Positions 680 through 38,248 of a stretch of DNA of 64,000 bases are shown here, one piece after another (the stretch's first letter is position 1; the number at the start of each line of letters is the position of its first letter). This stretch comes from Escherichia phage vB_EcoM_005. The stretch is taken from the sequence record MK295203; one strand, 5' to 3'. The translations under genes were made by a program, and so were the position numbers. The notes below the pieces were generated by a model. That model saw nothing but the letters and a program-made list of their open reading frames with translations. It was not told where the DNA came from and made no database searches.

Positions 680-1339
680 ATGAATTATTTAATTTACAAA
701 ATAACCAATCTCATTAATAACAAGATTTATGTTGGAGCCCATGCCACTACAGATGTTAACGATTCTTATATGGGTTCTGGGGTTAACATAGTAAAATCCA
801 TAAAGAAGCACGGTTTAGAGAATTTTAAAAAGGAAATCCTTTTCAATTTCGAAACACCTGAAGAGATGTATGCTAAGGAAGCCGAACTAGTTGATGAGGC
901 TTTTGTCATGAGAACAGATACTTATAATGCTGCCTTAGGCGGTAAGGGTAATCCTGTTATAGTAGCTTTACAGGAACCCGGGTATCGTGAGATGTTATCC
1001 GAAAAGACCAAGGCCGGTATGACCAAGGAAGTAAGGGCCAAAATGTCTAAATCGAAAACAGGTTCTAAAGAATCCAAAGAGCACCGAGAAAACAAATCTA
1101 TAGCTAATAAAAAGTTTTACGAGAATAGGGATTCTCATCTTAAAGGTAGGAAACTATCAGAAGAACATAAAGCCAAAATTAGAAAGAATTCTAATAAAGG
1201 TAAGAAATTCGTATTTGTGGATATTTCTATTAAAGGTCATGAATTTAGCCATTACGATTACGCTGCCGAATTCTTTAACGTATCCGCAAAAACTATAAGA
1301 AATTGGATTAATGAACGCGATGATTGTTTTAAGCTATAG
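680..1339 (+). CDS. GIY-YIG homing endonuclease (seg-like)
   Basis: YLIYKITNLINNKIYVGAH and YMGSG motifs near N-terminus, basic repeats and HTH-like C-terminus; sits between genes 23 and 24 where T4 has segD. Confidence 0.8.
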   Translation: MNYLIYKITNLINNKIYVGAHATTDVNDSYMGSGVNIVKSIKKHGLENFKKEILFNFETPEEMYAKEAELVDEAFVMRTDTYNAALGGKGNPVIVALQEPGYREMLSEKTKAGMTKEVRAKMSKSKTGSKESKEHRENKSIANKKFYENRDSHLKGRKLSEEHKAKIRKNSNKGKKFVFVDISIKGHEFSHYDYAAEFFNVSAKTIRNWINERDDCFKL

Positions 1340-1345
1340 AAACAA

Positions 1346-2846: not shown

Positions 2847-3563
2847 TTAAGAAATTCGTGATGCTGCGATTGCAGACAGGTCCGCGAAGGACAGGGTAGG
2901 CTTAGCGCCTTTTTCTTCAACTGCTTCTGAAATGTAATTCAGTGCCGCAGCATCGTCTACATTTTTATTTATAGCGGCTTCGGTGATTGGGTTTTCAACG
3001 TCAGTTTCAGTCAGGTCTTTAGTTGCTTCCGTAACAGCAACTTCACGCTGTACGTAATTAATATACGCGTCGCGCTTACCAACTTCTTCGAACAGACGAG
3101 CGGTTTCATCTTTCTGCTCTTGGAGTTCTTCTTCCATTTCAGCAACAACATCTACTGCTTCTTCTGGAACAACCACATTGTGTTCAACAAACAGTTCTTT
3201 CATACCCATCAACATGGATTCGAACAGTTCGGCTTTAATACCTTTATCAACAGCCAGCTGGTTTTCAGCCATCCATTCTTTAGCAACGTGGTCAAGGAAA
3301 CGACCGGCAGCTTCTTGGATTTTCTTATCGGCTTTTTCTTCAGCTTCTTCTTTATTTTTCTCTACTTCTTCTTCCGCTTTTTCAGCGATTTTAGCGATGT
3401 GAGATTCAGCCAGTTTCACGGCGTGTTGCTTGACGGTAGCTTCGAATACAGTGCCGAAAGTTTCTTTTGCTTCCGGAGAAATATTAACTGATTCGAAAAT
3501 ACTATCAAGAGCAACGGAAGCATCAATATTCTGTGCTTCGGCGATCAGTTGTTCTTTAAGCAT
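2847..3563 (-). CDS. 22: prohead scaffold protein gp22
   Basis: 238-aa acidic coiled-coil protein MLKEQLIAEAQ...; position between 21 and 23. Confidence 0.85.
   Translation of the reverse strand: MLKEQLIAEAQNIDASVALDSIFESVNISPEAKETFGTVFEATVKQHAVKLAESHIAKIAEKAEEEVEKNKEEAEEKADKKIQEAAGRFLDHVAKEWMAENQLAVDKGIKAELFESMLMGMKELFVEHNVVVPEEAVDVVAEMEEELQEQKDETARLFEEVGKRDAYINYVQREVAVTEATKDLTETDVENPITEAAINKNVDDAAALNYISEAVEEKGAKPTLSFADLSAIAASRIS
2966..2973 (-). promoter_or_regulatory. possible late promoter TATAAATA
   Basis: Forward TATTTATA = minus-strand TATAAATA, about 140 nt upstream of gene 23 start. Confidence 0.3.
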
Positions 3564-36629: not shown

Positions 36630-36914
36630 ATGCTATACGTTAAGGTTACTAATCCAGAGAATGGCTATAACTCCGATCAGGTTGCAGCTGAGTTGTTGAT
36701 TCGCAATTATGGCAAAGATGCTGTTCTTGATGTTCAACAGGTTAATATAGGACGTAGTTCAAGCGATGTTAAGCTCAAAGTTAACAGCCATCGTTATAAT
36801 TCTGTTAACTTTACTTTTTATACCGCAACTGAAAACGGATTGGTCGAATACGACATCTTTAAAAATCCTTTGAAGATTGCTTCTATTAAACTTGATTACA
36901 TTAATATGCTTTAA
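36630..36914 (+). CDS. hypothetical protein (94 aa)
   Basis: TAAATG coupling with previous ORF. Confidence 0.55.
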   Translation: MLYVKVTNPENGYNSDQVAAELLIRNYGKDAVLDVQQVNIGRSSSDVKLKVNSHRYNSVNFTFYTATENGLVEYDIFKNPLKIASIKLDYINML

Positions 36915-37043
36915 GAATTATGTGATATTATTACTCTATCATTAATACCCTCTATTACCAAAGGTTCTTCCCTCAAAGAACCTTTCATAATAGACAAGGT
37001 CTATTAATCAAACTTACTTTACTTAATTTTATTTGAGGTGTTT

Positions 37044-37310
37044 ATGTTAGTATTAAAATTAGCTTTTTATGACCCAGAAACCAAGACAACAACTACCAAA
37101 CGTTGTTCTATTTCATATGACTGCCAATTTGGCGAAGTTGAGACTGACGGCGAGCCCTTTATGGCAATTGCCGATAGCACATTCGCTAAACCAAAAATAA
37201 TTCCACTAGTTAACGCTGCGGCTTATCTGGTTGCTCCTGAAGAAATGACTTATCATACAATTCAGCACATGGCTAAAGACGATAATGCTCCTGCTGGATT
37301 TGTAATTTAA
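37044..37310 (+). CDS. hypothetical protein (88 aa)
   Basis: ATG after GAGGTG; preceded by hairpin AAGGTTCTT-TCCCTC-AAAGAACCTT and a decayed promoter cassette. Confidence 0.5.
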   Translation: MLVLKLAFYDPETKTTTTKRCSISYDCQFGEVETDGEPFMAIADSTFAKPKIIPLVNAAAYLVAPEEMTYHTIQHMAKDDNAPAGFVI

Positions 37311-37315
37311 ATTAA

Positions 37316-37389
37316 GGCCCTGTAGCTCAATGGTTAGCAGCAGTCCCCTCATAAGGGAAAGGTTACCGGTTCAAATCCGGTCTGGGTCA
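37316..37389 (+). tRNA. tRNA, anticodon CAU (Ile or Met)
   Basis: Hand-folded cloverleaf: acceptor GGCCCTG/CTGGGTC, anticodon loop CTCATAA, T-arm ACCGG-TTCAAAT-CCGGT; no encoded CCA. Confidence 0.6.
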
Positions 37390-37397
37390 TTAACTAC

Positions 37398-37472
37398 GTC
37401 CCGCTGGTGTAATGGATAGCATACGATCCTTCTAAGTTTGCGGTCCTGGTTCGATCCCAGGGCGGGATACCA
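37398..37472 (+). tRNA. tRNA-Arg (anticodon UCU)
   Basis: Acceptor GTCCCGC/GCGGGAT, D-loop AATGGATA, anticodon loop CTTCTAA, T-arm CCTGG-TTCGATC-CCAGG, discriminator A plus CCA. Confidence 0.75.
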
Positions 37473-37707
37473 AATGAAGACTATTATATAGTCAAGCCGT
37501 CGTATGAAGGACTGATTACCAGCATTCACCGGCGCAACAAACAAGAAACCGGGTCGCTACCGGTAAGTCGTCGGACTGAAGTTCCCTGAATAAGGACTGG
37601 CATTAACAAATCTTTACGATCTGTTAACGTCCCCTTATCTCACAGCTGAAACGGCGCACCGAACACTTGCCTAGCAGGTGGAACCCCGACAAGGTTACCC
37701 TAGGTTA
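37473..37707 (+). ncRNA. candidate small stable RNA downstream of tRNAs
   Basis: About 235 nt without ORF between tRNA-Arg and a strong terminator; T4 has stable RNAs next to its tRNA cluster. Confidence 0.3.
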
Positions 37708-37738
37708 AAGGCCCTTCCGAAAGGTTGGGCCTTTTTTG
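37708..37738 (+). terminator. rho-independent terminator
   Basis: AGGCCCTTCCGAAAGGTTGGGCCTTTTTT; identical copy at 38851-38880. Confidence 0.7.
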
Positions 37739-37746
37739 TATAAATA
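37739..37746 (+). promoter_or_regulatory. late promoter TATAAATA
   Basis: TATAAATA 29 nt upstream of internal-protein-like gene 37775. Confidence 0.5.
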
Positions 37747-37774
37747 GATAAGTTAATTAACACAGGAAACAATA

Positions 37775-38248
37775 ATGAAAACTTACAATGAATTTTTGAA
37801 CGAAAGCGTTCTGACTGAAGCCTCCGCTTCAGATGTTCGCGCTGCAGCAACTGCTGCTATTAAAGCCGGTAAATATTCTTATAAAGATGCTTCTGATGAA
37901 TCTCGGTACAAGTTCTACGACGATATGAGAGCTGAAGGCTTTGTGGGTAACTATGTTACCACCGCCTGGAAAAGCATGGTTGCTTCTGGTGCAGCTTTCG
38001 AAAAAGCTTCTGGTAAACCCGCTCCTAAGGCCGACCCTAAAGCAGCACAAGAAAAAAATATTGCTAAAGGAATTATCTCTAAGTATGAAGCAATTCTTAA
38101 AGAGCTTTTAGTAATCAAAACAGAAGGCCAGAAACTGGCACGAGCACATAGCTTCAAAGATAATCCACATGCTCACGACTTAGAGTATGTTGAAGATATT
38201 CAGAAAATCATCAAAGACCGTATCTGGTCTGCTAAACAAATCAAATAA
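37775..38248 (+). CDS. internal-protein-like (leader MKTYNEFLNES), 157 aa
   Basis: Leader variant, Ala/Lys-rich. Confidence 0.6.
   Translation: MKTYNEFLNESVLTEASASDVRAAATAAIKAGKYSYKDASDESRYKFYDDMRAEGFVGNYVTTAWKSMVASGAAFEKASGKPAPKADPKAAQEKNIAKGIISKYEAILKELLVIKTEGQKLARAHSFKDNPHAHDLEYVEDIQKIIKDRIWSAKQIK

Follow-up and report, generated by a model that had tools for sequence, protein, structure and literature searches.

We analysed a 64,000-nucleotide (nt) stretch of DNA from Escherichia phage vB_EcoM_005 (sequence record MK295203; hereafter the window), in which, at positions 37,316 to 37,738, two transfer RNA (tRNA) genes are followed by a 235-nt segment free of genes that runs up to a transcription terminator. 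This gene-free stretch is an unannotated member of the family of rnaD, the T4 gene for the stable "species 2 RNA", in a reduced tRNA operon that lacks the other T4 stable RNA gene of the locus, rnaC ("species 1 RNA"), and that probably carries a miniature duplicate of rnaD; as such it is largely explained already. The locus contains the following features:

37316–37389, plus strand: tRNA with anticodon CAU (ARAGORN; Rfam, 55.6 bits)
37398–37472, plus strand: tRNA-Arg (UCU), with an encoded CCA at 37470–37472 (ARAGORN; Rfam, 48.8 bits)
37473–37477, plus strand: AAUGA junction, as after T4 tRNA-Arg
37474–37538, plus strand: extra module "ins67" (65 nt), candidate miniature tandem paralog of rnaD
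37545–37660, plus strand: ortholog of T4 rnaD, species 2 stable RNA (BLAST, alignments and covariance model)
37661–37706, plus strand: 3' trailer, homologous to the T4 sequence after rnaC, with the hairpin CACUUGC-CUA-GCAGGUG at 37664–37680
37707–37737, plus strand: intrinsic terminator with a GAAA tetraloop and U6 at 37732–37737 (folding and T4 homology)

A blastn search with positions 37300–37760 matched 1,025 of 50,697 phage records, the best of them Dhakavirus-type coliphages (KIT01, PSD9, QL01, WG01 and MX01; 94–97% identity). According to these matches, the window is T4-like phage DNA with Dhakavirus as its nearest genus. T4 and its close relatives also matched, and their DNA is annotated as tRNA-Ile, segB, tRNA-Arg, rnaD and rnaC. 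In the T4 genome record (AF158101) rnaD begins 2 bases after tRNA-Arg and rnaC 6 bases after rnaD, and the T4 tRNA-region record (X03016) has the same order, with a potential terminator further downstream. The gene-free segment is not a chance feature because its G+C content is 49%, compared with 39.6% window-wide, and it has homologs in 740 phage records. Comparison alignments were made with T4, RB69, T2, GiZh, KNP5, KIT01 and dhaeg; a search for related loci with the trna.2 protein returned four near-identical loci only.

Positions 37545–37660 align with T4 rnaD along its whole length (BLAST, 84% over 117 nt, E=7e-29) and the trailer and terminator that follow are homologous to T4 sequence as well, in agreement with an earlier note made from the letters of this DNA, which had suspected a stable RNA akin to those beside the T4 tRNA cluster. 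There are two such RNAs at the T4 locus, of which rnaD is present here and rnaC is precisely missing. A covariance model built from 27 homologs gave the window copy 144 bits (E=4e-31), the sole high-scoring match in the window. Furthermore, the position corresponds to that in T4, on the plus strand, 3' of tRNA-Arg(UCU) and before the shared trailer and terminator, the sole difference being a 67-nt insertion after AAUGA. Identity to T4 rnaD is 96% in the 5' core, 88% in the 3' core and 70% in the apical part, to be compared with 97–100% for the tRNAs and 63–64% for the flanking genes trna.2 and trna.3; judged by these identities, the rnaD core is conserved at a tRNA-like level. We estimate the probability that the rnaD-ortholog identity and the operon architecture of the region are as given here at about 85%.

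The earlier note had proposed an Rfam search of the region and had counted the lack of a covariance-model hit against a stable RNA. The search matched the two tRNAs but returned no family for 37473–37738, where the best match at E≤10 was BTnc231 (12.4 bits with a gathering score of 80.4, E=7.7), resting on the terminator hairpin. That criterion is misleading, because Rfam 15 holds neither an rnaD nor an rnaC model and T4's own copies are unmatched too. Across the whole 64-kb window, no Rfam family besides tRNA reached its gathering score. Additionally, host mimicry was considered, and 37473–37664 had no blastn match in 5,426 complete E. coli genomes.

For the structural analysis, 27 distinct close homologs were gathered from GenBank phages, IMG/VR and metagenomes; one metagenome match (L030) was dropped as a chance match. 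Exact core-motif scans of IMG/VR and of the metagenomes gave 12–13 loci each; the core was the invariant one throughout, with no added variation in helix P2. Among the 27 homologs there is hardly any variation in the 5' 45 nt and the 3' ~25 nt, and the central ~50 nt occurs as three unrelated sequence types, each of which folds as a rod. In the RNAalifold prediction, a 5-bp hairpin with a 7-nt loop (P1) and an AA linker precede P2 (GUCGUCG/CGGCG(C)AC), which an internal loop (GACUGA/GAAA) separates from P3 (AGUU/AGCU); P4 and a variable apical hairpin follow. In the MAFFT alignment A3, 92.6% of the cells were paired compared with 33–49% in slid controls, and 11 pairs had changed on both sides, with covariation in P1, P3, P4 and the apical stem; the closing pair of P1 varies between A-U, G-U and G-C, and one pair in P3 is A-U in some sequences and U-A in others. 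With the distant members described below included (model-fitted alignment A4), 17 pairs carried double changes and P1, P3 and P4 covaried. According to these alignment models, rnaD has a secondary structure supported by covariation. Another register for P2 (UCGG/CCGA), taken from minimum-energy folds of Karamvirus sequences, was rejected, the CCGA partner not being conserved in T4, KIT01 and VR20. A hammerhead- or K-turn-like loop (CUGAUG...GAAA) seen by eye was also dropped, as no ribozyme family scored and the loop is unconserved in the Karamvirus and Jiaodavirus homologs.

The T4-type covariance model also found rnaD-like elements in more distant phages:

L047:708–809, CkP1 (Karamvirus): rnaD-like element, 34.8 bits
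L046:708–809, KMB19 (Karamvirus): rnaD-like element, 29.4 bits
L048:708–810, Erwinia phage COW86c: rnaD-like element, 22.5 bits
L040:1352–1476, KPV15 (Jiaodavirus): rnaD-like element, 21.0 bits

These elements, all unannotated, lie directly 3' of a tRNA, on its strand, behind a CCA-AAUGA-AGAA junction, and their scores of 21–35 bits make homology to rnaD probable. The KPV15 element folds alone to the same architecture (z=-3.4). A second model, to which the four distant members had been added, gave 46 bits to a Jiaodavirus member outside its training set and 21 bits to an element of Aeromonas CC2, which did not refold alone and is a possible member of the family. A looser signature scan, in which among the matches listed most were chance before an AAR-prefix filter, gave with that filter at least five further Karamvirus-type members in IMG/VR, with compensating changes in P4. 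The signature common to all is AAGAA, a hairpin, AA and (G/A)UCGUCGG ... UCCCUG ... ACGGCG. The KPV15 record (L040, NC_055715) has other unannotated gaps in its tRNA cluster, at 1477–1600, with a 17-bp closing stem (minimum free energy -45.9 kcal/mol, z=-4.65), and at 1677–1837, starting with CCA-AAUAAGAA and a hairpin; by these folds, the gaps hold structured RNAs besides the rnaD-like element. Similar gaps of ~245 and 160–175 nt lie between tRNA-Asn, tRNA-Asp and tRNA-Met in the Karamvirus genomes and the Erwinia phage. ARAGORN also found a tRNA-Asp (1601–1676) and a tRNA-Ser (2264–2348) in KPV15 that are unannotated in the RefSeq record.

The locus is modular: the mini-module and rnaC can each be there or missing, the apical part can be of type A, B or C, and all combinations of these states are found among relatives. 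rnaD is kept even where an open reading frame (ORF; RB69, T2, VR20) has taken the place of the neighbouring tRNA, and also where that tRNA is mostly deleted (L031). In RB69 (ORF150c, L003 862–1206) and T2 (L004 852–1202), tRNA-Arg and rnaD are separated by an ORF of ~115 amino acids (aa) assigned to phrog_3355, whose stop codon directly adjoins the start of the conserved rnaD core. In L031, a metagenome contig (UMIC01010870.1, ~1266–1340, minus strand), unrelated sequence stands in the place of tRNA-Arg, whose last nine bases (ATACCAAAT) precede an intact rnaD. The tRNA-Arg/rnaD junction is a recurrent insertion point.

The 67 nt inserted between tRNA-Arg and rnaD (37478–37544 by alignment) are absent from T4, RB69, T2, GiZh and dhaeg and occur in 25 phage records only, all Dhakavirus-like, at 97–99% identity and annotated in none; KIT01 has them together with rnaD and rnaC, also unannotated. 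ins67 is predicted to fold into a hairpin (GACUAU/AUAGUC) behind the leader AUGAAGA and, after an AA linker, a helix, (G)CCGUCG/CGGCG(C), that closes a short apical stem; folded alone, it has a minimum free energy of -15.4 kcal/mol (z=-2.3). The five inner base pairs of the closing helix are the same as those of the invariant P2 of rnaD. In addition, the leader CCA-AAUGAAGA matches the Jiaodavirus junction, and the 3' end GCGCAAC-AAACAA mirrors the 3' end of rnaD followed by a GiZh-type leader. Leaving aside rnaD itself, no plus-strand sequence of the window scores higher than ins67 with either of the two rnaD covariance models (11.5 and 11.4 bits), which align it as P1, AA and P2 with the interior deleted; the E value is ~0.7 over 128 kb and far smaller for the one adjacent position, an argument made post hoc. 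In alignments of ins67 with rnaD, 16 of 2000 shuffles matched the global score and 68 of 2000 the local one. We lean, with moderate confidence, towards a miniature tandem paralog of rnaD, a sequence with too little variation for covariation. The window has one extra G at 37510 (GAAGGACUG) with respect to all 25 database copies (GAAGACUG).

At the other end of rnaD, the trailer and terminator (37661–37737) are 80% identical to T4. The terminator hairpin (37707–37734; GGCCC..CC-GAAA-GG..GGGCC, with flanking A/U pairs) overlaps the U6 tract and is homologous to the "pot. terminator" of X03016 (4929–4952), with one compensatory C-G to G-C change; the strong terminator that the earlier note had read at the end of the segment is confirmed by the fold and this homology. 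A simple terminator scan missed 37707–37737 because of two U-U mismatches in the stem. T4 rnaC is absent from the window, in which ...GGCGCACCGAA runs straight into CACTTGCC, so that ~145 nt of T4, RB69, T2 and KIT01, which contain rnaC, are missing. The deletion junction, CACCGAA/CACTTGCC, is the same in almost all rnaC-less relatives (dhaeg, L010, L016, L020), with a one-base variant, CACAGAA/C, in L017 and L023. The terminator is followed by one more element:

37739–37746, plus strand: late-promoter consensus TATAAATA (pattern search); the next gene has its Shine-Dalgarno sequence at 37764–37769 and its ATG at 37775

This is the sole plus-strand copy of TATAAATA within ~5 kb, and the RNA operon has its 3' limit here. 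The block formed by the terminator stem and TATAAATA (window 37710–37746) recurs a few hundred bases downstream in relatives (L002 2679–2707, L008 2082–2105 and L007 2076–2099), and it may be a recombination cassette of the hyperplastic-region type.

Regarding the two tRNAs, the CAU tRNA is identical to T4 tRNA-Ile (AF158101, X03016) at 72 of 74 positions, the two differences forming a compensating T-stem pair (CCGG/CCGG here, CCAG/CTGG in T4), and tRNA-Arg(UCU) is identical to T4 tRNA-Arg at 75 of 75. ARAGORN and the Rfam tRNA model at its gathering score found no further tRNA gene in the 64-kb window, as the earlier note had stated. ARAGORN labels the CAU tRNA Met, which is almost certainly wrong because of the orthology to T4 tRNA-Ile and because its nearest copies in E. 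coli assemblies, on ~90-kb plasmids, are labelled tRNA-Ile by PGAP; by this comparison it is almost certainly an AUA-reading tRNA of the tRNA-Ile2 type, for which lysidine modification is predicted. Its acceptor stem has C4-G69 and C5-G68, pairs that tRNA-Ile2-type tRNAs carry and that TilS requires. AUA and AGA, the codons read by the two kept tRNAs, are common in this AT-rich genome (11.7 and 7.0 per 1000, respectively, in the long ORFs of the window) and rare in E. coli. An adjacent tRNA(CAU)/tRNA-Arg pair with ~71% identity over 143 nt to the window pair is also present in phAPEC8-like Phapecoctavirus and in a Pseudomonas phage; its occurrence in unrelated large myoviruses suggests that Ile2 and Arg travel, or are selected, together.

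Upstream of the tRNAs the following features were found:

36905–36931, plus strand: likely middle-mode promoter, with a MotA box TGCTT at 36907–36911 and a -10 element TATTAT at 36926–36931
36960–36985, plus strand: leader hairpin AAAGGTTCTT-CCCTC-AAAGAACCTTT, downstream of the promoter (pairing read off the sequence)
37044–37310, plus strand: small ORF, 88 aa from the ATG at 37044 (phrog_14864, function unknown, E=1.4e-62)

The promoter overlaps the stop codon of the trna.2 homolog and aligns base for base with T4 PM2 of X03016 (-35 region 3161–3167, -10 region 3182–3187), which points to it as the likely MotA-dependent middle promoter of the tRNA/stable-RNA operon. The leader hairpin is conserved in T4, where it stands ahead of tRNA-Gln. 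Behind this conserved PM2 and leader the first element differs, being tRNA-Gln in T4 and the 88-aa ORF here. This ORF sits at the place of T4's first six tRNA genes, and homologous ORFs precede the two tRNAs of KIT01; it is probably co-transcribed with the tRNAs because it ends 5 nt before tRNA-Ile.

A single transcript would probably run from the MotA-dependent promoter (36905–36931) through the ORF, tRNA-Ile(CAU), tRNA-Arg(UCU), the 65-nt mini-module, rnaD and the trailer, ending at the intrinsic terminator (37707–37737). As in T4, host tRNA-processing nucleases would cut the conserved CCA-A/AUGA junction (slash, cut) and trim the 3' trailer, so releasing a stable rod-shaped RNA of ~116–120 nt and possibly a second one of ~65 nt. 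The transcription, processing and stability of the window RNA are all proposed here by analogy to experiments in T4.

rnaD has been known in T4 since the 1970s and its function has been open for ~50 years. The roles of RNAC and RNAD are described as unknown (PMC3014915), and both behave as late RNAs in T4 infection (PMC9697503). In an experimental evolution of a T4-like phage on E. coli ECOR34, one single-nucleotide polymorphism (SNP) in the rnaD region emerged in all three lines, and the virulence measure went from 0.17 to 0.98 (PMC12685909). We tentatively propose that rnaD is processed into a stable, dispensable, trans-acting accessory RNA with a host-dependent benefit, in which the invariant CGUCG/CGGCG helix and the adjacent loops could be the docking site of a protein from the host or the phage and the replaceable apical hairpin just a spacer; the chance that this proposal is right as a whole seems to us well under one half. 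A wider version, in which rnaD and its mini-copy would form a widespread uncatalogued RNA family of T4-like tRNA clusters (Tequatrovirus, Mosigvirus, Dhakavirus, Gaprivervirus, Karamvirus, Jiaodavirus and possibly Aeromonas phages) whose invariant CGUCG/CGGCG helix is recognised by a host factor, as trigger of or decoy for a strain-specific defence, and so influences host range, is speculative and rather improbable; the convergent ECOR34 SNP in the rnaD region is the one experimental hint for it (PMC12685909).

Several points weigh against the reading of rnaD as structured, processed and functional. Alignment A4 was fitted to the model and leans towards structure by construction, and P2 is invariant in the 20–27 aligned sequences, its support being folding energy and one weak Aeromonas case. 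The fold z scores of single sequences are modest (-1.9 for the window rnaD, -0.4 to -1.5 for several relatives), and among the T4-like phages sampled the models gave no rnaD match in Serratia X20, Citrobacter IME-CF2 and VR26. In addition, that a discrete, stable RNA is cut out of the tRNA precursor is known for T4 (X03016, PMC3014915, PMC9697503) and would hold for the window by extrapolation, the published SNP, by the coordinates of its paper, probably falls in the variable apical hairpin, and a protein-binding, host-specific function is a conjecture.

The main rival explanation is that the segment has no function of its own and is a structured spacer or 3' trailer that gives nucleases an entry and carries the terminator, the stable RNAs being nuclease-resistant by-products. 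This would agree with the RNA always lying directly 3' of a tRNA behind a conserved CCA-AAUGA junction, with the decades of T4 work that found no function (PMC3014915), with the clean loss of rnaC and with the several T4-like phages that have no detectable rnaD. However, a spacer needs no 96% identity in a 45-nt core next to flanking genes at 63%, rnaD is retained without its tRNA neighbour or with an ORF in between (RB69, T2, VR20, L031), and a single SNP in the region led to a large host-specific gain in virulence (PMC12685909), so that we consider a mere by-product unlikely. It is still less probable that the conservation acts on the DNA, for example as a recombination or homing hotspot mediating cassette exchange in the hyperplastic region. 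The full set of module combinations among relatives implies reshuffling by recombination, homing endonuclease genes such as segB insert nearby, and the terminator/late-promoter block is found again downstream, in keeping with the PeSL shuffling model (PMC4122927), but strand-specific compensatory changes that keep RNA helices, G-U pairs included, and the accumulation of the RNA in T4 would be left unexplained.

Two further readings deny that the segment is an RNA gene of this kind. The earlier note had also offered remnants of deleted tRNA genes, that is, that the stretch or its first 67 nt decayed from an eight-tRNA cluster like that of T4. tRNA content does change here, T2 and GiZh having tRNA-Tyr and tRNA-Asn between tRNA-Ile and tRNA-Arg, and the 3' end of the 67 nt (GCGCAAC-AAACAA) resembles a tRNA 3' end plus spacer (GACCA-AACAA). 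However, neither ARAGORN nor the Rfam tRNA model, even at E≤10, found anything tRNA-like in 37473–37738, a BLAST comparison of the 67 nt with the tRNA-rich loci of T4, T2 and GiZh gave no match, nothing else in the window fits the rnaD model as well as they do, and the other 116 nt align fully with rnaD, a non-tRNA, which makes decayed tRNAs very improbable. Hardly any weight can be given to very small proteins. Short ORFs do occur, namely a 21-aa GTG ORF running into the terminator (37678–37743), which is the only plus-strand ORF of at least 20 aa in 37473–37707, and minus-strand ORFs of 57, 27, 22 and 51 aa; a "hypothetical protein" is also annotated over the homologous DNA in several records. 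Against this, the substitutions are compensating helix pairs with no codon pattern, the central part comes in three unrelated sequences, the total lengths (117, 118, 120, 122 and 124 nt) do not keep to steps of three, the longest of the ORFs lies opposite tRNA-Arg on the antisense strand and the product in T4 experiments is an RNA. The segment therefore contains no credible coding ORF between 37473 and 37707, as the earlier note had it.

The reading of the segment as a member of the rnaD family removes a puzzle, as the "empty" 235 nt are the counterpart of a long-known T4 RNA. It also exposes a gap in annotation: Rfam and nearly all phage annotations lack rnaD-type RNAs, and at such loci pipelines leave blanks or put spurious hypothetical proteins. 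The structure supported by covariation, the invariant core and the swappable apical hairpin are direct targets for mutagenesis, and the relatives with and without rnaC, with and without the mini-module and with three apical types provide a natural series of deletions and swaps.

Compared with known systems, the closest is T4 rnaD itself (~119–120 nt), with which the window copy shares full-length homology, strand and place in the operon, core sequences and predicted fold. It differs in the extra 67-nt module that separates it from tRNA-Arg, in an A-U for a U-A pair in P3, in a diverged apical hairpin (70%) and in abutting the trailer directly, unlike in T4, where rnaC intervenes. rnaC (species 1 RNA, ~137–139 nt, with a tRNA-like T arm) lies in the same operon in T4, RB69, T2 and KIT01 and is excised exactly in the window, as in dhaeg, IME341 and other Dhakavirus-type genomes. 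The same minimal pair of tRNAs, CAU and Arg(UCU), stands beside rnaD in RB69 (Mosigvirus), VR20 (Gaprivervirus) and KIT01 (Dhakavirus), although in RB69 and VR20 an ORF separates tRNA-Arg from rnaD and KIT01 keeps rnaC, unlike the window; the two-tRNA state is ordinary, a recurrent minimal set among T4 relatives. The Karamvirus, Jiaodavirus and Erwinia elements share the P1 hairpin, the AA linker, the signature and the rod-like fold with the window rnaD, whereas they follow tRNA-Asn instead of tRNA-Arg, differ in P1, P3 and P4 with compensating changes and do not conserve the internal loop GACUGA/GAAA. Lastly, the terminator/late-promoter block resembles the PeSL cassettes (Comeau, Arbiol and Krisch 2014, PMC4122927), in which a terminator hairpin with a promoter directly behind it is repeated in the hyperplastic region and associated with insertions and deletions, as is the case here; PeSLs are defined by a promoter of the early sigma-70-like type (PMC4122927), whereas the promoter here is the late-type TATAAATA, and by analogy the block could have a similar role in shuffling.

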